Source: Bacilli bacterium | GTDB lineage: Bacteria; Bacillota_I; Bacilli_A; RFN20; CAG-826 | Length of the DNA: 64,000 nucleotides | Assembly (NCBI GenBank): GCA_017454295.1 | Contig: JAFTDF010000016.1 | Coordinates: 8,928 to 72,927 of the forward strand | Reading direction: 5' to 3' | Shown: positions 2,094 through 36,141 of the stretch, in pieces | Position numbering within the stretch: position 1 is the stretch's first letter | Layout: each line of letters begins with the position of its first letter | Notes under the pieces: model-generated | What the model was told of the DNA's origin: nothing | Database searches by the model: none | Seen by the model: the letters and a program-made list of their open reading frames with translations, nothing else | Position numbers and translations under genes: made by a program

Positions 2094-2360
2094 TTACTTC
2101 CGCGCCTCGGCGATCGTGGGATCTTCTTCATAGGCGGAGAGGACTTGATCGGCTTCGTCGAGCTCCTCCTCATCGCATTCTTCCAGATGTTCCCCATCGG
2201 CGCAAGAGAGGACGAAGATCTCGTCTGGGGATTCGCTGCGGTAGAGGAAGTAATAGTCTTTCCCCCGCTGCTCATTCGTGTAATAGAAGAGAATGTTCAG
2301 TTTGGTTTCTTCCCCATTCTCCCCATAGAGGATGATTTCGTTGTCTTTGGTGATTTCCAT
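2094..2360 (-). CDS. DUF1292-family small acidic protein
   Basis: ENGEE...GKDY pattern and acidic C-terminal helix; SD AAAGGAG before ATG 2360; usual position after alaS. Confidence 0.75.
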   Translation of the reverse strand: MEITKDNEIILYGENGEETKLNILFYYTNEQRGKDYYFLYRSESPDEIFVLSCADGEHLEECDEEELDEADQVLSAYEEDPTIAEARK

Positions 2361-2370
2361 AGGTACTCCT

Positions 2371-4977
2371 TTATGCCTTAAGGGCTTCACGTAAGGCGGA
2401 TTTGACGGCTTCGATGTCGGCTAAGGCTTTCCCCGAACCGGAGGCAAAGCTGGGTTTACCACCGCCATTGCCTTGATACAGGGGCCCGACGAGTTTCATC
2501 GCGCTGCCAGCGCCAAGACGTTCCCCTTTTCCACCGGCAAAGGCGCTGAGGGCAATGCCTTTTTCGCCTTTGGCGGCGATAAAGATCAGATAATCGGCGA
2601 ACTTGGTTTTCATGGAGTCGCCAAGTTTTCCGGCTTCTTCCCGGCCTCCTTCGATTTGGGTGGCGAAGAAATGGACGCCATCGATCTCTTCGAATTCGCT
2701 GGTAAGCGAAGAGGCGAGCGAGGAAGCAAGCTTGGCTTTGAGGCGGTCGATTTCCTTATTTGCGGCATTTAGTTCCTCGCGGAGCCCATCGACTTTCTTG
2801 ATGATGAGGGCATCTCCTGGATTGCCTAAGGTTTCTCCGAGCTGGTCGAGGGCTTCCCGTTTGCGGGCAAGATATTGATAAGCGCCTAATGAGGTGCGTC
2901 CTTCGATACGGCGGACGCCACTGCTGACGGCGGAATCGCTGGTTAAAACGAAGATGCCGATGTCACTGGAATTGGCAACATGGGTGCCACCGCAGAATTC
3001 TTTGGAGAAATCCCCAAAGGTCACGACGCGGACCAAATCGCCATATTTCTCGGAGAATTCCATTTCGGCGCCGAGTTTGGCGGCTTCTTCGATTGGCAAA
3101 ACCAAGGTCTTTTCCTCGATGGCTTCTTCGATTTTGGCATTGACCATTTTTTCGATGGCTTGCAGTTGCTCTTGGCTAGGACGCGGTTCAGCCTCATAGT
3201 CGAAACGAAGATATTCTTCGTTGACAAAGCTGCCCTTTTGATCGACATGGTGGCCTAAGACTTCCCCGATGGCGGCGTGGAGCAAATGGGTCGCGGAATG
3301 GTTACGGGCGGTTAGACGACGCTTTTTGGCATCGACCTGCAAGGTGAATTCATCGCCTTTGCGGATGGTGCCATAGGCGAGCTGGACGTGATGGAGATGG
3401 GCTCCATTGGGGGTTTTGCCCATGGCGACGACCCGTCCGGAGGCGTTTTGGTTTTCGATGCTGCCTTCGTCGGAGACTTGGCCGCCGGATTCGCTATAGA
3501 AGGGCGTCACATCGAAGACGACGTCCCCTTCCTCATCGATTTCTTCCGTGGCGACGCCATCGACGAAGAGGCCGATGACCTTACCTTTGGTAGAAAGGGT
3601 GCCATAATCGAATTCGGATGTTTCTTGGAAGGCGAGCAAGTCTTTGGACTGCTTATGGAAGGAAGCGACTTCGCTGCGCGCGGAGCGGGCGCGTTGCTTT
3701 TGTTCTTCCATGCAAGCGCGGAATCCCGCTTCATCCACTTTGACACCGGCTTCGGCACAGATTTCATTCGTGAGGTCGAAGGGGAAGCCAAAGGTATCGT
3801 AGAGAAGGAAGGCATCCGCCCCGGAAAGGGTATCCTTGTCTTCGATTTTTTCCCGAAGCAACGCTTCTCCGGAGACCAAGGTCTTCAAGAATTTGCGTTC
3901 TTCGTTTTCGATCGATTTGACGATGTAATCCCGGCGACCTTCGAGATCGGGATAGAAATCCTTATATTCGGCGATGACGGTATCGACGAGTCCATACATG
4001 AAAGGATGGTCGATGCCGAGTTTCTTCCCATAACGCATGGCGCGACGGATGATACGTCTTAAGACGTAACCGCGGCCCTCATTGGAGAAGGAAGCTCCAT
4101 CGCTTAAGGCGAAGGTGAGGCAACGGGCATGGTCGGCGATGACGCGGAAGGCCATCTTGTTCTCCCCTTGATAGGATTGACCGCAAAGCTGTTCGGTCTC
4201 TTTGATAATGGGGGTGAATAAATCGGTTTCGAAGTTGGTTTCGGTGCCCTGTAAGATGCAGGCGATCCGTTCTAAGCCCGAGCCCGTATCGATGTTTTTC
4301 GAGGGCAATTCCTTATAGTCTTCCCGTTTGACCCCGGCGACGGAGTTGAACTGAGAGAAGACGATGTTCCAGATTTCGATATAACGGTCGTTTTCGATTT
4401 CCTTGCGTAAGAGTTCCACGCCTCTGCCTTCGGGATCGTAGGCTTCGCCCCGGTCGAAGAACATTTCGGTGTCGGGACCACAGGGCCCTTCCCCGATTTC
4501 CCAGAAGTTGCCTTCTAGGGGAATCAAATGATCCTCGGGAACCCCGCATTTGACCCAAAGGTCATGGGTGGCCTTATCCAAGGGAGAATAGGTGATATAG
4601 AGCTTTTCGAAGGGGATGCCAAAGCCGACTTCCTCGCTGGTGAGGATCTCGGCGGCCCAGGGAATGACCTCGTCACGGAAATAATCCCCGATGGAGAAAT
4701 TCCCAAGCATTTCAAAGAACGTATGGTGACGGGCGGTATGGCCGACGTTTTCGATATCGTTGGTGCGGATGGATTTCTGCACGTTGACGATGCGTCGGGA
4801 TGGCGGGATTTCGCTCCCATCGAAGTATTTCTTTAATCCGGTGACGCCGGCATTGACCCAAAGCAGGGATTTGTCGCCCTGGGGGATCAAAGGAACCCCA
4901 GGAATATAAACATGTCCTTTGGATTGGAAGAATTTGATCCAAACCTGGCGGATTTCGCGGCCGCTTAATTTGCGCAT
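2371..4977 (-). CDS. alaS: Alanine--tRNA ligase
   Basis: RHHTFFEMLGNFS, GPCGP, editing motifs HSATHLLH and CGGTH; SD AGGAGG before ATG 4977. Confidence 0.98.
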   Translation of the reverse strand: MRKLSGREIRQVWIKFFQSKGHVYIPGVPLIPQGDKSLLWVNAGVTGLKKYFDGSEIPPSRRIVNVQKSIRTNDIENVGHTARHHTFFEMLGNFSIGDYFRDEVIPWAAEILTSEEVGFGIPFEKLYITYSPLDKATHDLWVKCGVPEDHLIPLEGNFWEIGEGPCGPDTEMFFDRGEAYDPEGRGVELLRKEIENDRYIEIWNIVFSQFNSVAGVKREDYKELPSKNIDTGSGLERIACILQGTETNFETDLFTPIIKETEQLCGQSYQGENKMAFRVIADHARCLTFALSDGASFSNEGRGYVLRRIIRRAMRYGKKLGIDHPFMYGLVDTVIAEYKDFYPDLEGRRDYIVKSIENEERKFLKTLVSGEALLREKIEDKDTLSGADAFLLYDTFGFPFDLTNEICAEAGVKVDEAGFRACMEEQKQRARSARSEVASFHKQSKDLLAFQETSEFDYGTLSTKGKVIGLFVDGVATEEIDEEGDVVFDVTPFYSESGGQVSDEGSIENQNASGRVVAMGKTPNGAHLHHVQLAYGTIRKGDEFTLQVDAKKRRLTARNHSATHLLHAAIGEVLGHHVDQKGSFVNEEYLRFDYEAEPRPSQEQLQAIEKMVNAKIEEAIEEKTLVLPIEEAAKLGAEMEFSEKYGDLVRVVTFGDFSKEFCGGTHVANSSDIGIFVLTSDSAVSSGVRRIEGRTSLGAYQYLARKREALDQLGETLGNPGDALIIKKVDGLREELNAANKEIDRLKAKLASSLASSLTSEFEEIDGVHFFATQIEGGREEAGKLGDSMKTKFADYLIFIAAKGEKGIALSAFAGGKGERLGAGSAMKLVGPLYQGNGGGKPSFASGSGKALADIEAVKSALREALKA

Positions 4978-4990
4978 AAGAGTGCCTCCT

Positions 4991-5128
4991 AAAATAAAAA
5001 AGCGCGGGATGAAGGAACGCCATGGCGCGGTACCATCCTTCTTCACCTCGAGGGTGCGCTTACTTCTTCACTTAACGCGTGATACGGTGGCATTACCCAC
5101 ATGAGGGGGAGTGGCAAGTTCCCGATGG
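4991..5128 (-). promoter_or_regulatory. T-box riboswitch leader of alaS (compact)
   Basis: T-box sequence AAGGATGGTACCGCG (5040-5026), complementary CGTTCCTT antiterminator strand, CGTTA F-box-like hairpin and a U tract before the SD. Confidence 0.85.
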
Positions 5129-5196
5129 CAAAATTAAAGCACTTTCTTTTAGAAATATCCACTAAAAAAGCGGTTTTGAAAACAACGATGGAACGT

Positions 5197-6333
5197 TTAA
5201 ATATCGATGCGCTCGTCGCGCCGATAAATTTCGCCGATGATGCCGCCGCCTCGCATCGTTTCGCCTTGGTAAATCACGGCGATTTGGCCAGGGGTCACGG
5301 CTTCGACGGGGTGGTCTTCGTAATGGAGGTAGATGCGATCTCCCTCAAAACGCATTCTCGCGGGTTGATCGGGCTGGCGGTAACGGAACTTAACCCCCAC
5401 TTCGATTTCCCCTTCCGGACGAGGTCCGACCCAATTGACGCCATCGAGATAGCAAGAAGTCGATTGCAGGAGTTCGCGCTCCTCAAGTTGGGCCACGTGG
5501 AGGATATTTCTCGCCACGTCCTTCTTATAAATGAAGTAGGCACCTTCTTTGACCCCTTTGACGCCACCGATGCCAAGGCCCTTATGCTGGCCTAAGGTGT
5601 AATAGAGGACGCCGATATGCTTGCCGATCACGGGACCGTTTTCCCCTAAGACGACGTCGCCTTCATGGGAAGGGAGATAGTTTTGTAGGAATTCTTTGAA
5701 GTTGCGTTCACCGATAAAACAAACCCCGGTGGAATCTTTCTTGTCCATGACCGATTCCAAATCGAGTTCATGGGCGATTCGCCTCACCTCTTCTTTTTCG
5801 ATGTCGCAAAGCGGGAAGAGGCAAGAAGCGATTTGCTCTTCGTTGATTTGGGAAAGGAAATAGGATTGGTCTTTCTTCTTATCGGCGGCTTTTTGTAGAT
5901 AATAGAGCCCATCCTCTCCCTGAATGCGCTTGGCATAATGCCCCATGGCGATCATCTCGCATCCCTGAGACTTCGCGAATTTCAAAAACGAATCGAATTT
6001 GATGTATTTGTTGCAAAACACATCGGGATTGGGCGTTCTGCCCTTCTTGTATTCTTCGAGGAAATACGTGAAGACGTTATCCCAGTATTCTTTGACGAAA
6101 TCCGCCCGTAACAAAGGGATGTCTAGTTTTTTGGCGACCGCCACGGCATCCCAATAATCTTTTTCCTGGGGGCATTGGTCGTTATTGATCGTGGGATTGC
6201 CCAGGTAATCGTTATTGGCGAGGGCATCCCAGTTGCGCATGAAACCCCCTACCACTTCGTAGCCTTGTTGTTTTAGCAAATAGGCGGCGACGGCCGAATC
6301 CACCCCACCGCTTAATCCGACCATGACTTTCAT
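5197..6333 (-). CDS. mnmA: tRNA 2-thiouridylase MnmA
   Basis: SGGVDS, TPNPDVFCN, KDQSYFL, KDSTGVCF and AVTPGQ motifs. Confidence 0.97.
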   Translation of the reverse strand: MKVMVGLSGGVDSAVAAYLLKQQGYEVVGGFMRNWDALANNDYLGNPTINNDQCPQEKDYWDAVAVAKKLDIPLLRADFVKEYWDNVFTYFLEEYKKGRTPNPDVFCNKYIKFDSFLKFAKSQGCEMIAMGHYAKRIQGEDGLYYLQKAADKKKDQSYFLSQINEEQIASCLFPLCDIEKEEVRRIAHELDLESVMDKKDSTGVCFIGERNFKEFLQNYLPSHEGDVVLGENGPVIGKHIGVLYYTLGQHKGLGIGGVKGVKEGAYFIYKKDVARNILHVAQLEERELLQSTSCYLDGVNWVGPRPEGEIEVGVKFRYRQPDQPARMRFEGDRIYLHYEDHPVEAVTPGQIAVIYQGETMRGGGIIGEIYRRDERIDI

Positions 6334-6782
6334 TTGAAAAGCTCCTGCGAATCCAGTAACACGGTGAAAGGACCCTCATTGACTAGCGATACCTGCATAT
6401 CGGTTTGGAAGACGCCCCCTTGTAAGGCGGGAAATAGGGCCTTTAACGAAGCAAAGAAATAGGCGTAGAGGGCATTGGCCTCCTCCGCTTTCATGGCTTT
6501 GACGAAACTCGGGCGGTTGCCTTGGGAGCAATCCGCATACAAGGTGAACTGCGAAACGCTTAGCACTTCCCCGCCAATATCGGCCAAGGCCAGATTGGTT
6601 TTCCCGTTTTCATCGGCGAAAATCCTGAGTTTCGCCACCTTTTGGACCATTTTATCGGCGATTTCTGGGGTATCCCCGGAAGTAAAACCAACCAGGAGCA
6701 AAAACCCTTTGCCGATAGAGGCCACCCGTTCCCCTTCGATATCGACGGAGGCGGAGGTGACCCGCTGAATCAATACGCGCAT
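6330..6782 (-). CDS. dtd: D-aminoacyl-tRNA deacylase
   Basis: MRVLIQRV, SQFTL and NEGPFT motifs. Confidence 0.97.
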   Translation of the reverse strand: MRVLIQRVTSASVDIEGERVASIGKGFLLLVGFTSGDTPEIADKMVQKVAKLRIFADENGKTNLALADIGGEVLSVSQFTLYADCSQGNRPSFVKAMKAEEANALYAYFFASLKALFPALQGGVFQTDMQVSLVNEGPFTVLLDSQELFK

Positions 6783-8083
6783 TAGGAAATCACCTCATGG
6801 ATAATCGGCGGATAGGCCACTTTTTCCGACGTGATTTCGAAGGCTTGTTGGACTTCGGCGAAGACATCGTCGACGTTTTCTTTGTTGGTATGGCAATAAG
6901 CGATGACTTCATTTGCTTCCACCGCATCGCCGACTTTCTTGGTGAGCATGATGCCGGCGGACATATCGATGGTATCGGTCATCTTTTCCCGCCCGGCGCC
7001 AAGTTTCATGGCCGAAATGCCGATGGCTAAAGAATCGATGCGCTTGATGTAGCCAGCCCGCGGAGCGTAAATGGGCACGATGCGGGAGGCAAGGGGGAAC
7101 TTCTCGGGATGGTCGATATAGGTGGGATCCCCGCCTTGGGCTTCGACCATGGCCCGCAATTTGGCTAGACCACTGCCATCGGCAATGGCGGCTTCGACTT
7201 TCTTACGGCCTTCTTCGACCGAATCGACGAGCTTGGCTTGGGTCAATAACAAAGCGGAGGCACCGATGCAGAGTTCGACGAAATCATGGGGACCTTTCCC
7301 CTGCAAGGTGGCAATGGCTTCTTTCACTTCGAGTGCATTGCCTACGGCAAGCCCTAACGGCTGATCCATGTCGGTGAGGGTCGCTCTGGTATCGCGGCCG
7401 AGGTTTTTCCCGATCTTGACCATCTCGCGGGCCAATTCCCGGGCCCGTTCTTGGGTCTTCATAAAAGCCCCGGATCCGAATTTGACGTCGAGGAGGATCG
7501 CATCGGTTCCCGCGGCGAGTTTCTTCGACATGATGCTGGAGGCGATCAAAGGAATGGATTCGACGGTCGCGGTAACGTCGCGAAGCGCATAGAGTTTCTT
7601 ATCCGCGGGGACGATGGAAGTCGTTTGTCCGATGATGGCCAAGCCGATGTCATTGACCTGCTGGATGAATTGTTCGCTGGTTAAGGAGATATTGAATCCG
7701 GGGATGGATTCGAGTTTATCGAGGGTGCCTCCGGTATGGCCAAGGCCGCGGCCCGACATTTTGGCGAGTTTGGCGCCACAAGCGGCAACCAAAGGTCCTA
7801 CGGCAAGGGAGGTCTTATCCCCCACCCCACCGGTGGAATGCTTATCGACTTTGACGCCTTGGATGGCGGAAAGATCGATCGTTTCTCCCGAATGCATCAT
7901 GGCATCGGTCATGATCGCGGTTTCTTCCTCGTTCATGCCCTGGAAATAAACGGCCATGGTAAAGGCGGATGCCTGATAATCGGGGATATCCCCGTTGGTA
8001 TAGCCTTGGATGAAGAAGCGGATTTCTTCTTCGGTTAAGGGATGGCCATCCCTTTTCTTTTCGATAATGTCTACGGCTCTCAT
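6782..8083 (-). CDS. pdp: Pyrimidine-nucleoside phosphorylase
   Basis: MRAVDIIEKKRDG start; DKHSTGGVGDK and SGRGLGHTGGTLDKLESIPG motifs. Confidence 0.96.
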   Translation of the reverse strand: MRAVDIIEKKRDGHPLTEEEIRFFIQGYTNGDIPDYQASAFTMAVYFQGMNEEETAIMTDAMMHSGETIDLSAIQGVKVDKHSTGGVGDKTSLAVGPLVAACGAKLAKMSGRGLGHTGGTLDKLESIPGFNISLTSEQFIQQVNDIGLAIIGQTTSIVPADKKLYALRDVTATVESIPLIASSIMSKKLAAGTDAILLDVKFGSGAFMKTQERARELAREMVKIGKNLGRDTRATLTDMDQPLGLAVGNALEVKEAIATLQGKGPHDFVELCIGASALLLTQAKLVDSVEEGRKKVEAAIADGSGLAKLRAMVEAQGGDPTYIDHPEKFPLASRIVPIYAPRAGYIKRIDSLAIGISAMKLGAGREKMTDTIDMSAGIMLTKKVGDAVEANEVIAYCHTNKENVDDVFAEVQQAFEITSEKVAYPPIIHEVIS

Positions 8084-31764: not shown

Positions 31765-32609
31765 CAAAATAAGCCTCTTAGACTATGATAAACCCCTTCT
31801 CCGTCTTTTTCATAGACGGCAATCGCTTGGTTTCGATAGATCAGTAGCACTTCCTGCGCCGCCGATGGGAGGGATAATTTCACCCCGTTGAGGGCCTTTT
31901 GATAGGTGGTTTCATCGAGTTCAAACCGCTCCATATGGCTGAGGATTTGAAGGGGGTTTTGCAAGGAATTTTCGTCAATTTCGTCCAGTTTTTGCGCGTT
32001 TTCGACGCGGAAGGGACCAATCGCGGTGCGACGCAAGGCAACTAGATGCCCGATGGTGCCTAGGCGCCTAGCGAGTTCCTCCCCCAAGGTGCGGATATAG
32101 GCGCCTTTGGAGACTTTGACGCGAAAAGAAATCGTAGAGGCATCATAGCCGAGGAGTTGGCTTTCATAGACTTCGATTTCCCGACCATGGCGTTCAATTT
32201 CTTTGCCTTGGTGGGCGAGTTTATATAAAGCCACCCCATCCACTTTGATCGCGGAGGTCATAGGCGGGATTTGGATTTGTTTGCCTAGCAAAGATGAAAG
32301 GGCCGTTTCGATTTGGGATTGGCTAAGTGCGGGAACGGGCTGCTCTTCTTGAATGGCCCCCGTCAAATCCCCCGTATCGGTGGCAACCCCTAACTTCAAG
32401 GTGGCTTCGTATTCTTTCTCTTCGTCGCGAGCAAAACGAAGGGCTTTATTCCCCGCGTTGACCCCGATGATCAATAGCCCGGTGGCAAAAGGATCGAGGG
32501 TGCCCAAATGCCCCACTTTTTGGGTATGGAAGTAACGGCCGATCGTATTGTCGACCTTGCGGGAAGTCAGCCCCGCCTCCTTATCGAGAAAGAGGATTCC
32601 GGATTGCAT
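31764..32609 (-). CDS. truB: tRNA pseudouridine(55) synthase
   Basis: KVGHLGTLDPFATG and SKGAYIRTL motifs. Confidence 0.96.
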   Translation of the reverse strand: MQSGILFLDKEAGLTSRKVDNTIGRYFHTQKVGHLGTLDPFATGLLIIGVNAGNKALRFARDEEKEYEATLKLGVATDTGDLTGAIQEEQPVPALSQSQIETALSSLLGKQIQIPPMTSAIKVDGVALYKLAHQGKEIERHGREIEVYESQLLGYDASTISFRVKVSKGAYIRTLGEELARRLGTIGHLVALRRTAIGPFRVENAQKLDEIDENSLQNPLQILSHMERFELDETTYQKALNGVKLSLPSAAQEVLLIYRNQAIAVYEKDGEGVYHSLRGLF

Positions 32610-32654
32610 GGGATTAGTTTAACAGGTTGGTCCGCTTTTGCTATGATTAGCCTC

Positions 32655-33791
32655 GTGAAATATATCCGTAAAGTCTTGGCCTGCTTACGCAAAGCCGACG
32701 AAACCTTCTCTTTGATCGACGAACGCGACCGCATCCTGGTCGGGGTTTCCGGTGGCAAGGATTCGATGGCCTTGCTCAAGGCTTTATCCATCTACCGCAA
32801 ATTCTCGCAAAAGCATTTTTCCATCGTCCCCGTCTCCTTGGATCTAGGTTTCCCCGGCTTTGAAACCAAGCAGATGGAAGACTTCGCCGCCTCCTTGGGA
32901 TTGACCCTGCGTGTCGACGATGCCAAAGAAGTCTACCCGATCCTTTTGGCCCACACCAAAGAAGACCACCACATCCCCTGTTCGATTTGCTCACGGATGA
33001 AAAAAGCCGCCATCAACGCCGCGGCGAAAAAATATCGGTGCAACAAAGTCGCCTTCGCCCATCACCAAGACGATGCTTTGGAAACCTTGCTCATGAACAT
33101 GATCCATGGTGGAAAAGTGGCGACTTTTGAGCCAGAAATGCATCTTTCCCGGGCGGGCATCACCTTTATCCGTCCCTTTATCTTCGTCTCCGAAGAGGAT
33201 ATCAAAGGTATGGTGAGCGAAGAAAGCATCCCCGTGCTAGGGAAAACTTGCCCCGCCGATGGCTTCACCGAACGCGAATACTGCAAACAAAAACTGCAAA
33301 CCCTGTATCAAGAACGAAGCGAGGCCAAAACCAATTTTGCCTCCATGCTTTATAACTACGAGCCCTTCTTGCTCTATTTCGACCGGATTTATTATGCGAT
33401 CCCAGGTGCTCCAAAATTTGCGTTAAAACCCAACGTCCATCCTTCCCATGTCGTGGCTTATAACGCCTTGGTGAAGAAACATCCCGAACTTTCCTATATG
33501 GAAAAAGAAGCCACCACCTTCTTCTTTTGCAAAAACAAGAAGATCGTCGGTCGTATCGATTTCACTTTCGAAAACGCCCATACGTGCGTGATTTCCTGCA
33601 TCGAATCCTATCTCAGCGAAGAAGAGACCTTAGTCTTTGCCAGGGCGATGATGAAGCGTCTCCTTGATCAGATCAATCCCCTCTATTACGTCTATACGGG
33701 AAAGCGAAAACGCTTGGCGAAAGCCTTGGGCTTTGCCTTAGGTCGCGCTCCTGGACACATGCAGCAGCTCGCCTACTACGGCAAGAAGTAA
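32655..33791 (+). CDS. TtcA-family tRNA thiolase-like ATPase with a C-terminal extension (start GTG 32655 or ATG 32643)
   Basis: PP-loop SGGKDS, CSIC, AHHQDD, IRP and CPADG motifs. Confidence 0.85.
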   Translation: MKYIRKVLACLRKADETFSLIDERDRILVGVSGGKDSMALLKALSIYRKFSQKHFSIVPVSLDLGFPGFETKQMEDFAASLGLTLRVDDAKEVYPILLAHTKEDHHIPCSICSRMKKAAINAAAKKYRCNKVAFAHHQDDALETLLMNMIHGGKVATFEPEMHLSRAGITFIRPFIFVSEEDIKGMVSEESIPVLGKTCPADGFTEREYCKQKLQTLYQERSEAKTNFASMLYNYEPFLLYFDRIYYAIPGAPKFALKPNVHPSHVVAYNALVKKHPELSYMEKEATTFFFCKNKKIVGRIDFTFENAHTCVISCIESYLSEEETLVFARAMMKRLLDQINPLYYVYTGKRKRLAKALGFALGRAPGHMQQLAYYGKK

Positions 33792-35264
33792 CTATTTTCG
33801 ATAAGCGGTTTGATAAAAGCCACGCCACGGGGCGAGGTTTTCGATGGTTTTTCCAATCGCAAGCACCAAGGCGTCTTGGTATTTCGGAGCCAGCACATGG
33901 AGGCCAACGGGCAACCCGTTTTCGCCGATTCCAGCGGGCACCGAAGCGGCTGGATAGCCCACGAAATTTGCCAAAAAGGTCGGGGCGAAGCCAAGATTCG
34001 AATCGATGGATATCCCATTGATTTCGCTTGGCCCTTGGGTCGTCCCTTTTTCCAAAGCGTTCTCCGGCGGGAAGCAACACGCCGTCGGCGATAAAATGGC
34101 GTCATAAGAAGTGAAGACATCCTCAAACGCATCGAGGATCTCCGTCCGTGTCAAATTGAATTGATAGAGATCTTCCGTGGTGAGATGGCCCGCTTTTTCG
34201 ACATATTCGGCGAATAAGGGATGGACTTCATCGCCATGTTCTTTTAAGAAGTCGATGCCTCGTTCCTGCTTTAAGGTTTCGAATTCGATATAAGAATCGA
34301 AACTTAAGCTTAAGCACCACTGCTCCATGATTTCCTTGGCGCTTCGGGGAAAGGACATCTTCACCTCTTCCACGATCGCCCCCGCTTCTATTAGTTTCTT
34401 GAGGCAAGTTCTGACTTTCGCTTCAATTTCAGGATCCACCGGCAAAATCCCCAGTCCTGAGACATAGGCAAAACGTTTCCCGCGAAGCGATTGTTTCATT
34501 TCCAACGTGAAATCTTCGTGGGCAAAAGGAATCGAGGTGGGGTCGCGGCGGTCATAACGGACTAAGGCGTTGAGCAAAAACGCACTATCTTCCACCGTCT
34601 TGGTTAATACCCCCGTGCAGCAATAAGGATGGGTGGCGGAAAAACTATCAGGGCGGATCACCGAAGGGATCAAACCGGCAGAGGCCTTAAAACCAAAGAG
34701 GTTATTCCACGCGGCGGGGATGCGAATCGATCCACCGGCATCGCCGCCTTCGGCGATGAGCACCATCCCAGAAGCCACCGCGGCGGCGCTGCCTCCGCTG
34801 GAACCTCCCGAATTCTTCGATAAATCGAAGGGATTATGCGTCGGGCCGTACATTTTATTATCGGTGAGTCCGCTAAAGCCAAAAGAAGGCGCATTGGTTT
34901 TGCCCACGCAAATCGCATCCATGCTCTCCAAAGCTTTGCAAACCTCGGAATCCAATGGGTCGATGCTTTGATAATGGAGGACGCCTCCATGACTCGCGGG
35001 CCAGCCTTTTTTCGAAGGTAAGAAATCCTTCAAGGCGAAAGGCACCCCTGATAAAGGACCAACACGTTCCCCGGAAGCAATGCGCTCTTTCAAGGCTTTC
35101 GCTGCCGCGGTTGCTTCCGCGAATTTGGTATAGGTAAAAGCGTGAATCAGCGGATTCAAACGCTCGATACGATCGATGAAATAGGCCAACACCGTTTCAG
35201 GATCGGCTTGACCCGATTGAACCAAGTGCCCTAATTCTAAGGCCGATAAGGTTTCATACTCCAT
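33792..35264 (-). CDS. Amidase-signature family enzyme
   Basis: ALKD Lys, GGSSGGSAAAVA and DAGGSIRIPA (Ser-cisSer-Lys triad); ATG overlaps the transporter stop (TAATG). Confidence 0.92.
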   Translation of the reverse strand: MEYETLSALELGHLVQSGQADPETVLAYFIDRIERLNPLIHAFTYTKFAEATAAAKALKERIASGERVGPLSGVPFALKDFLPSKKGWPASHGGVLHYQSIDPLDSEVCKALESMDAICVGKTNAPSFGFSGLTDNKMYGPTHNPFDLSKNSGGSSGGSAAAVASGMVLIAEGGDAGGSIRIPAAWNNLFGFKASAGLIPSVIRPDSFSATHPYCCTGVLTKTVEDSAFLLNALVRYDRRDPTSIPFAHEDFTLEMKQSLRGKRFAYVSGLGILPVDPEIEAKVRTCLKKLIEAGAIVEEVKMSFPRSAKEIMEQWCLSLSFDSYIEFETLKQERGIDFLKEHGDEVHPLFAEYVEKAGHLTTEDLYQFNLTRTEILDAFEDVFTSYDAILSPTACCFPPENALEKGTTQGPSEINGISIDSNLGFAPTFLANFVGYPAASVPAGIGENGLPVGLHVLAPKYQDALVLAIGKTIENLAPWRGFYQTAYRK

Positions 35265-36019
35265 TAAGCGGCCTCCGTCTTCTCTTCGGGATAATAGGCG
35301 TCGACGTATTCTTGCCCCACCCCTTTTTCCTTCCACTTCCTCGCAATGCGGTAGCCGATGGGAGAGAAGAGCATTTCCAAAGCCAGTTCCACCACGGCGC
35401 AGGTAAGGGAGCAAATCGCGCACTGGGTAAGGGTCCAAGTCACAGGCAAGGCACCGGGAATCAAAGGGAAGACGATGAAAGCGAGGGAAATAAAGACGAA
35501 ATTATCGATGTATTGGCCGATAAAGGTCGAAATATAGGTCCGCGTGAAATAGGCGGCTTTGGAATCGGGACGATTCTGAAAGGCACGGCCAATCAAATGG
35601 TTCATGAAATTATTGACCAGGGCCGAGGTCACAAAGGCAATCGAAGAAGCCAGCAACACCGACCATTGGCCATGGAGAATCATATCAAGCTCGGGGATGG
35701 TCCCGATTTGGGAGATGATGAAGAAGATGCCCACGGCGACCAAATTGGCGCTTAAGGCGATCCAGGAAAGGCGGTTGGCGGCTTTGGGGCCGAAACGCTT
35801 GTTGACGACATCCATGATCATAAACGCCGCCCACGAAACGAATACCCCGGCGGTCAAGGCCAAATAAGGGGTATTGACGATGGTGAAGCTCGAAAGCAGA
35901 TTCATGGCAATGACCACGAAAGAAAAAAGTACGATGACAAGTTTGGGGACCGATCGTACCAAGGTGGAAAAAAGTTGGATTTCCCGCTTCGCCAAGGATG
36001 GCTGGGAAGAATGTTGCAT
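35264..36019 (-). CDS. VUT/YhhQ-family (queuosine precursor) transporter
   Basis: About 6-7 TMs; MDVVNKRFG, ASSIAF and RTYISTFIGQYIDN match the Vut_1 pattern. Confidence 0.85.
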   Translation of the reverse strand: MQHSSQPSLAKREIQLFSTLVRSVPKLVIVLFSFVVIAMNLLSSFTIVNTPYLALTAGVFVSWAAFMIMDVVNKRFGPKAANRLSWIALSANLVAVGIFFIISQIGTIPELDMILHGQWSVLLASSIAFVTSALVNNFMNHLIGRAFQNRPDSKAAYFTRTYISTFIGQYIDNFVFISLAFIVFPLIPGALPVTWTLTQCAICSLTCAVVELALEMLFSPIGYRIARKWKEKGVGQEYVDAYYPEEKTEAA

Positions 36020-36027
36020 GGGGTTTC

Positions 36028-36076
36028 TCCTTGGTTTTGTTTTTTATAGCGAAGGATTTAGAGGCCGAACTCCGCT
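36028..36076 (-). promoter_or_regulatory. Putative preQ1 class I riboswitch
   Basis: P1 AGCGGAG/CUUCGCU, loop from UUCG to C, tail AUAAAAAACAAAACC running into the SD; upstream TTGCCT-N17-GAGAAT; VUT context. Confidence 0.65.
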
Positions 36077-36111
36077 GGGACATATTCTCTTCCTTTCCGT
36101 AAGAAGAGGCA

Positions 36112-36141
36112 AGAAAAAAGCAGGTATGTTTCAACCTGCTT
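36112..36141 (-). terminator. Terminator after rbfA
   Basis: AAGCAGGT...ACCTGCTT followed by a U tract. Confidence 0.8.

Follow-up and report, generated by a model that had tools for sequence, protein, structure and literature searches.

The window analyzed here is a stretch of 64,000 nucleotides from a Bacilli bacterium (GCA_017454295.1, contig JAFTDF010000016.1, positions 8,928 to 72,927), and its minus strand carries a compact unit made up of a leader that resembles the preQ1-I riboswitch, a transporter gene of the VUT/YhhQ family, and a gene for an amidase-signature enzyme, in this order (Table 1). The initial annotation had read this as a self-contained, preQ1-riboswitch-led unit of VUT and amidase and as a candidate new queuosine-salvage module; the presence of tgt in the genome, the distance of the amidase from GatA, and its linkage to VUT in other genomes all support that reading. 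A preQ1-I-type leader together with a mobile, tightly coupled importer-amidase unit tied to queuosine/7-deazaguanine metabolism is well supported by our data, and we give about even chances to the wider proposal that the unit is a horizontally mobile, self-contained queuosine-precursor salvage operon. The leader that follows the terminator-like hairpin measures ~100 nt. The described coupling of the two genes can be read directly at 35267-35262, where in TAATG the ATG of the amidase overlaps the stop codon TAA of the transporter.

Table 1. Features of the importer-amidase unit and its surroundings in the window, and of the related viral contig L095
Locus	Feature	Position	Strand	Evidence or description
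Window	infB	38373-36520	minus	Pfam and NCBIfam
Window	rbfA	36520-36146	minus	Pfam and NCBIfam
Window	Intrinsic-terminator-like hairpin with T-run, end of the infB-rbfA unit	36118-36141	minus	8-bp stem, 8-nt loop, tail TTTTCTTGCC
Window	Weak sigma-70-like promoter candidate: TTGCCT (36112-36107), 17-nt spacer, GAGAAT (36089-36084)	36084-36112	minus	By eye
Window	preQ1-I-like aptamer and expression platform (putative)	36027-36076	minus	Sub-threshold RF00522, model R2, P1 folding and covariation
Window	VUT/YhhQ/QPTR-family transporter, 251 aa	35264-36019	minus	Pfam Vut_1
Window	Amidase-signature enzyme, 490 aa	33792-35264	minus	Pfam PF01425
L095	Tandem preQ1-I-like elements	2160-2213 (then terminator-like hairpin) and 2283-2338		
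L095	Weak GNAT-like open reading frame	5189-5500		
L095	DpdA-like transglycosylase, ~1 kb downstream of the amidase	5758-6822		phrog_887, E 3.9e-40

The leader would be a long-loop derivative of the type I preQ1-I aptamer. Its stem P1 comprises 7 bp (36076-36070 with 36054-36048) and closes a loop of 15 nt (UUCGGCCUCUAAAUC, 36069-36055), which ends in U36056 and the putative specificity C (36055). An A-rich tail (36047-36035) is followed by C36034 and C36033, and the Shine-Dalgarno sequence GGAG (36030-36027) can pair with CUCU in the loop (36063-36060). As described in the available excerpts of PMC11625349 and PMC8752633, type I aptamers have UU atop the 5′ strand of P1 and UC before its 3′ strand, with the C pairing with preQ1; G5, U6, and A30 contact the first ligand and U7 and C31 the second, and the tail carries CUA, of which U32 is the ceiling of the pocket. 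The window leader keeps the contact nucleotides G5, U6, U7, C8, U16, C17, A30, and C31 (window equivalents G36070, U36069, U36068, U36056-C36055, and A36035-C36034), and with them all alpha- and beta-site nucleotides that the excerpt of PMC8752633 names. With type I, as represented by the Carnobacterium antarcticum structure and RF00522, it shares a short P1, UUC(G) directly after the 5′ strand of P1, UC before the 3′ strand, an A-rich tail ending in A-C, a Shine-Dalgarno sequence in the 3′ tail, and a position in front of a queuosine-precursor transporter. It differs from type I, as do the related long-loop leaders, in a P1 of 6 to 7 bp instead of 5, a loop of 15 instead of 12 nt, a tail ~3 nt longer, CCA in place of CUA, and the extra loop bases CUCU that can pair with GGAG.

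At gathering thresholds, no Rfam family matched anywhere in the window. Under permissive settings, PreQ1 (RF00522) was the sole riboswitch family to appear, at 36079-36025, with 14.6 bits against a cut-off of 39 (E 2.2 in 401 bases). Thermodynamic folding predicts P1, at an energy so ordinary (z 0.93; 162 of 200 shuffled sequences fold as well) that it gives no support by itself. Stronger indications come from the leaders of VUT genes in related genomes, whose P1 variants include GCGGAG/CUUCGC, GCGCAG/CUGCGC, GACAG/CUGUC, GAUAG/CUAUC, and AGAUG/CAUCU. Because a joint MAFFT alignment of the two leader types found there misaligned the 3′ strands of P1, two separate covariance models were built, R1 for canonical-looking leaders (loop UUCGnAACCAUC, tail ...AAAACUAGG) and R2 for the long-loop type of the window (loop UUCGGCCUCUAAAUC, tail ...AAAACCAAGGAG). 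R2 matched the window once (36081-36020, 78 bits), and the motif pattern was found once in the 1.63-Mb genome. In the alignment of the combined leaders, which was fitted to the model and hence leans towards structure, 95.3% of the P1 cells are paired, compared to 79.5% in shuffled alignments (none of 500 reaches the observed value) and 32 to 62% in slid controls, and six of the seven pairs change on both sides. Complementarity between loop and Shine-Dalgarno region is kept, as short helices, by four variants (CUCU/GGAG, UGACU/AGUCG, AUCUUUCU/AGGAGGAU, and CCUUG/CAAGG), which is suggestive of the expected H-type pseudoknot, four variants being too few for a column-wise test. The annotated preQ1-I-like aptamer abutting the Shine-Dalgarno sequence therefore stands as regards the kept contacts and the covarying P1, whereas the search with RF00522 left it below the family threshold; we would assign it to the preQ1-I family by architecture and context.

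The wider distribution of the leader was followed in 71 loci, fetched with two amidase peptide patterns only and with one genome per species. A leader matching R1 or R2 is present in 62 of them, 37 being long-loop and 25 canonical (one of these divergent, with 27 bits). Seven of the nine leaderless loci have no upstream DNA, so that 62 of the 64 loci with upstream DNA carry a leader; L075 and L094 have room upstream and no R1 or R2 element. Against RF00522, canonical leaders score 22.9 to 34.5 bits in eight of nine loci. The 25 canonical leaders before VUT-amidase carry CUA, with the divergent one (L072) as the exception, and CCA takes its place in the window and in all 37 long-loop leaders. 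A canonical leader also precedes the queC-VUT genes in L014 and L016, and a canonical element in that position is the hallmark of a preQ1 regulon. The long-loop leader also occurs before a VUT gene followed by a short-chain dehydrogenase (SDR) gene in L007 and L124.

These distributions bear on the idea that the long-loop leader is a specificity variant for another ligand, for example the masked precursor, so that the unit would be regulated by its own substrate. The loop GGCCUCUAAAUC (15 nt) and the tail AAAACCAAGGAG show hardly any variation in Bacilli and Clostridia, and this constancy, the change of U32 to C, and the low RF00522 score could all be taken as signs of such a variant. On the other hand, both leader types precede the same gene pair, the long-loop type is shared with VUT-SDR pairs, no alpha- or beta-site nucleotide named in the excerpt of PMC8752633 is lost, and R2 cross-matches canonical leaders at 13 to 19 bits. 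Moreover, folding buries the Shine-Dalgarno sequence and would make an OFF switch, an odd design for induction by a substrate. We consider a change of ligand improbable; the initial annotation had offered it as an alternative, and the interchange of long-loop and canonical leaders before one gene pair has made it less likely. That a predicted translational OFF switch of the preQ1-I family precedes the two co-translated genes is, from these comparisons, strongly supported.

The borders of the element were also delimited independently. In metagenome and RNA-library contigs from four runs, many other organisms match only the 55 bases 36024-36078 and diverge on both sides, and many gut organisms share a nearly identical long-loop aptamer. 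Two further leaders deserve mention. In a Lachnospiraceae metagenome-assembled genome (MAG), the leader before VUT-amidase that R1 scored at 27 bits (L072:3049-3112) has UUUUG for UUCG and a longer loop, and may be a further variant of the aptamer. In a member of the Bacilli, a leader before VUT-SDR (L013:1420-1476) has AC before the 3′ strand of P1, a pyrimidine-rich loop, and a 5-bp helix CCUUG/CAAGG over AAGG; it looks like type III preQ1-I, which has been described for Pseudomonadota.

The transporter matches Vut_1 (PF02592) with 85.9 bits (cut-off 27.2) and narrowly misses the NCBIfam model for queuosine precursor transporters, TIGR00697, with 48.5 bits against 50.95. As a query, it found no Vut_1 match in its own genome other than itself. 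It belongs to the same Pfam family as YhhQ/QPTR (COG1738, PF02592), the preQ0/preQ1 importer of Escherichia coli, from which the window-type transporter differs in being paired with or fused to an amidase. A further likeness is that yhhQ is under riboswitch control, as stated in the available parts of PMC5372724 and PMC11625349. In a quick, preliminary transporter tree, the amidase-linked transporters stand apart from the SDR-linked clade and from the single queC-linked transporter that was included. The partner label needs 2 changes on this tree compared to 9.7 in shuffles, and the two leader types are found with different transporter clades; we therefore take it that the whole unit travels together.

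The pairing of transporter and amidase is not a chance arrangement. In 67 of the 71 amidase-fetched loci, VUT lies immediately upstream on the same strand, which bears out the linkage elsewhere on which the initial annotation had made its proposal depend. In three of the remaining loci (L073, L087, and L089), the contig ends at the amidase match or no more than 56 bases from it. In the fourth, from a Treponema MAG (L088:3843-5611), a 536-aa amidase directly follows a canonical preQ1-I-like element, with no VUT in the 4 kb upstream, and here the amidase alone sits under the switch. Seven of the 67 pairs are single fused open reading frames (ORFs), the others being mostly −11 to +31 nt apart. 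A protein search with the fused form found 19 database clusters that hold PF02592 and PF01425 in one protein, and also returned a long list of stand-alone amidases that are ~50% identical. In the order of the window genome, the amidase is present in 5 of 301 genomes (E 1e-40 or better), in all five with VUT directly upstream and in three of them as single ORFs of 708 to 709 aa; five of the 71 loci are from the same genomes as these order-level matches. It is strongly supported, then, that the amidase almost never occurs without this importer, to whose C terminus it is sometimes fused. In a phylum-wide sample, 1 of 399 scored genomes has the amidase, namely, the window's own, and this rarity is a patchy distribution and nothing more. 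Clustering of the neighboring ORFs in the 71 loci gave no third recurrent gene around the pair.

The hosts of the 71 loci are Bacilli and Mollicutes-type MAGs, many Clostridia, one member of the Selenomonadaceae, and 16 Treponema or Spirochaetaceae, mostly from gut compartments of sheep, goat, cattle, yak, or deer. Two carriers are cultured, Anaeroplasma bactoclasticum ATCC 27112 and Clostridiales bacterium NK3B98. Counting the viral contig described below, three phyla and a phage share the conserved unit. Bovine, sheep, and goat gut metagenomes from several studies also contain the window's own stretch. Exact pieces of the amidase (34269-34517 and 34583-34733) and of VUT (35280-35684) also occur in RNA libraries; they may be DNA and are not proof of transcription, and the parts that the RNA-library contigs leave uncovered carry no meaning.

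The pair also occurs in L095, an IMG/VR viral contig with the leader, VUT, amidase, and a DpdA-like transglycosylase within 2160-6822, surrounded by DNA polymerase A, RecA, and resolvases (Table 1). A tblastn search with the amidase against 50,697 deposited phage genomes gave no match at E 1e-30. Because a phage would have use for a supply gene and not for a proofreading one, the pair in L095 argues for a role in supply and not in detoxification or proofreading.

Within the order of the window genome, VUT genes not paired with the amidase are followed by an SDR gene in nine of the nine loci with downstream DNA. These riboswitch-led pairs (L006-L013 and L015, e.g., L011:1462-2870, and L096-L125) encode classical SDRs of ~215 to 240 aa (PF13561/PF00106), which reach no NCBIfam equivalog, the best rows being FabG and cyclic-diol dehydrogenases. 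The SDR was found in 50 of the 301 order genomes, VUT is present in 26 of the 30 SDR loci fetched, and SDR and amidase never co-occur. One could imagine that the SDR frees preQ1 by oxidizing the queuine diol. The importer of this lineage is habitually paired with a processing enzyme, and this habit adds weight to the idea that what these transporters import is the base in bound form.

The amidase matches a single Pfam family, PF01425, with 318.5 bits, and reaches none of the NCBIfam equivalogs. K79, S155, and S179 are invariant in all 12 aligned members of its clade, and from the motif spacing of the family, we take them to be the Lys/cis-Ser/Ser triad; on this assignment, the triad is intact, as had been annotated. 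By far the best solved relative is a bacterial aryl acylamidase (4YJ6/4YJI; E 5e-109, 368 bits, residues 7-485), which has the Lys/Ser/Ser motif at the same positions and presumably frees the amine from N-acyl amides (N-acetyl-arylamines and anilides such as acetaminophen). We know of no link between this aryl acylamidase and VUT or queuosine. Few bacterial salvage enzymes are known, namely QueK, QueL, and Qng1-like hydrolases, and the match to PF01425 alone places the amidase outside them, as had been claimed, since they are a nucleoside hydrolase, a radical SAM enzyme, and a DUF2419 protein. No hydrophobic or signal-like stretch was found at the N terminus of the amidase, and in the fusions it follows a transporter whose relative YhhQ has six predicted transmembrane helices (legend in PMC5372724); the amidase should therefore be cytoplasmic and act there.

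GatA was tried as an identity for the enzyme and rejected. The gatA model TIGR00132 gives a partial match of 215 bits, and this match is what could suggest a GatA-like glutaminase that supplies ammonia to another reaction. The score is far below the cut-off of 481, the GatA chains among the solved structures follow at ~1e-42 compared to the 5e-109 of the aryl acylamidase, and a separate, better GatA-like gene (434.7 bits, also under the cut-off) lies elsewhere in the genome on contig C17. With no GatB/GatC-like partner or other recurrent neighbor among the 71 loci, a glutaminase role is extremely unlikely, and the amidase had rightly been kept apart from GatA.

The queuosine genes of the carriers help to narrow down the product. 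The genome of the window (1.63 Mb, 89.8% complete) has tgt, whose presence the initial annotation had made a test of its proposal, in a queT-tgt-queA-queH cluster on the minus strand of contig C17 (147278-150602, locus L001); queC and queF were not found in this 89.8% complete assembly. The cluster is a complete preQ1 salvage route without a recognizable riboswitch (Rfam gave no match on this locus), which makes the VUT-amidase unit a second uptake route. All of the five other carriers examined have tgt as well (6 of 6 with the window genome). In three of them, A. bactoclasticum, a Ca. Enteromonas MAG, and a Clostridia MAG, queC and queF were likewise not found, which makes four of the six carriers. 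In A. bactoclasticum and the Clostridia MAG, the unit is the one route of precursor uptake that could be recognized among those searched. According to the available text of PMC5372724, a cell that lacks QueF can salvage preQ1 only. In at least four carriers, then, where neither queC nor queF was found, the unit would have to end in preQ1. Whether preQ1 is also what the amidase itself releases we regard as roughly a balanced question.

The amidase might instead hydrolyze 7-amido-7-deazaguanine (ADG) to 7-carboxy-7-deazaguanine, either to feed QueC or as proofreading against a dead-end amide that, co-imported by VUT, would compete at Tgt. Amidase-signature enzymes commonly hydrolyze primary aromatic carboxamides, and a proofreading enzyme, too, could well be fused to the importer. 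The closest solved relative, however, presumably cleaves N-acyl amines and not carboxamides. Proofreading also fits poorly with the viral pair and its DpdA-like neighbor, which point to supply. ADG is a real amide-bearing 7-deazaguanine and an intermediate of QueC, as given in the accessible part of PMC5372724, and dADG is among the DNA modifications listed in the excerpt of PMC10516641. Its use as a salvage source, which the initial annotation had raised, would need QueC and QueF and is disfavored by the four carriers in which these were not found; QueC, where present, uses ADG directly, and therefore the amidase would be unnecessary. We consider a role in ADG hydrolysis unlikely.

Finally, the pair might have nothing to do with 7-deazaguanines, with VUT importing another amide nutrient for the amidase to hydrolyze and the likeness of the leader being a coincidence. 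The narrow miss of TIGR00697, the unmet Rfam threshold, and the chemical breadth of the amidase family leave some room for this. It is nevertheless very improbable in view of the canonical preQ1-I leaders before 25 of the loci and before queC-VUT in L014 and L016, of tgt in six of six carriers, and of the viral pair ~1 kb from a DpdA-like transglycosylase.

We propose that the amidase is a new queuosine-salvage enzyme that frees preQ1 from N-acyl-preQ1 imported by its QPTR partner, a tentative assignment to which we give somewhat less than even chances. The choice of substrate follows from the chemistry: amide hydrolysis that gives preQ1 directly means N-acyl-preQ1, the other example that the initial annotation had given. 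When preQ1 is scarce, the Shine-Dalgarno sequence would be free and both proteins would be made. The importer would then take up a 7-deazaguanine with its amine masked in amide form, the simplest candidate being an N-acylated preQ1 such as N-formyl- or N-acetyl-preQ1, and the amidase would remove the acyl group in the cytoplasm to give preQ1, which Tgt, QueA, and QueH would build into tRNA. With rising preQ1, the aptamer would fold, the loop would pair with GGAG, and translation would stop. A natural N-acyl-preQ1 nucleoside is known in N-formyl-dPreQ1 (fdPreQ1); as reported in the excerpt of PMC10516641, the DNA of a Flavobacterium phage carries it in place of all dG. Hypermodified phage DNA of this kind might release the masked base, which bacteria would then use in tRNA and phages in the modification of DNA.

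Several points weigh against the release of preQ1 from an acylated precursor, or against the salvage operon as a whole. At ~40% identity, the aryl acylamidase is an unsafe guide to the substrate class of the amidase. None of the leaders reaches the Rfam cut-off, and the C that replaces U32 in the long-loop type weakens the inference of ligand specificity. Two carriers, a Treponema and a Lachnospiraceae, have queC and queF, and the unit is thus not confined to auxotrophs; QueT was found in one of the five other carriers, and the argument that a cell with a preQ1 importer would need the unit only for some other compound holds for the window genome and is not general. To our knowledge, no free N-acyl-preQ1 base has been reported. 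VUT could also import preQ1 itself, with the amidase as an accessory.

The proposed release of preQ1 from an acylated form would share its logic with queuine salvage in Clostridioides difficile, in which a bound form of the base is imported and preQ1 is released inside the cell. There, QueT reportedly serves as the importer, QueK as a nucleoside hydrolase, and QueL as a queuine lyase that gives preQ1. The window unit differs in having an amidase-signature enzyme instead of a nucleoside hydrolase and a radical SAM enzyme, an importer of another family, and a substrate that would contain an amide bond. PMC11130926 names QueK and Qng1 as signature genes of salvage. Our literature searches returned only unrelated papers and none that links an amidase to YhhQ, preQ1, or queuosine salvage. 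In the main texts of the YhhQ paper (PMC5372724) and of the 2024 survey of Q-precursor transporters (PMC11130926), neither "amidase" nor "dehydrogenase" occurs, the supplementary tables being outside the scope of this search. A complementation assay in E. coli queD yhhQ is established, as the available text of PMC5372724 indicates.

As to the surroundings of the unit, the computed hairpin and T-run at the end of infB-rbfA agree with its annotated position after the rbfA terminator. The promoter claimed in front of the leader is the weaker part of that observation, the rest of which was confirmed: the candidate was found by eye, matches 8 of 12 positions, and was omitted by a promoter scan that needed 9 of 12. 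It would put the RNA start at about the first base of P1. On the other side, a gene for a TtcA-like PP-loop protein (427 aa, 32508-33791, plus strand) converges on the unit, its end lying one base short of the amidase stop codon on the opposite strand, with no terminator between the convergent genes. The protein is longer than usual and scores 165 bits with the NCBIfam TtcA model, under the cut-off of 272.

In sum, two aspects of the unit reach beyond this locus. The long-loop leader would be a fourth structural subtype of preQ1-I, and it would mean that the smallest riboswitch class can gain inserted bases that pair with the ribosome-binding site itself. As a tRNA modification, queuosine resembles a micronutrient, and most gut organisms and all animals depend on its salvage. 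If the proposed role is true, the importer-amidase pair would bring a further enzyme family into this pathway and would imply a new precursor molecule as well, and there would be an unrecognized 7-deazaguanine currency in ruminant-gut communities.

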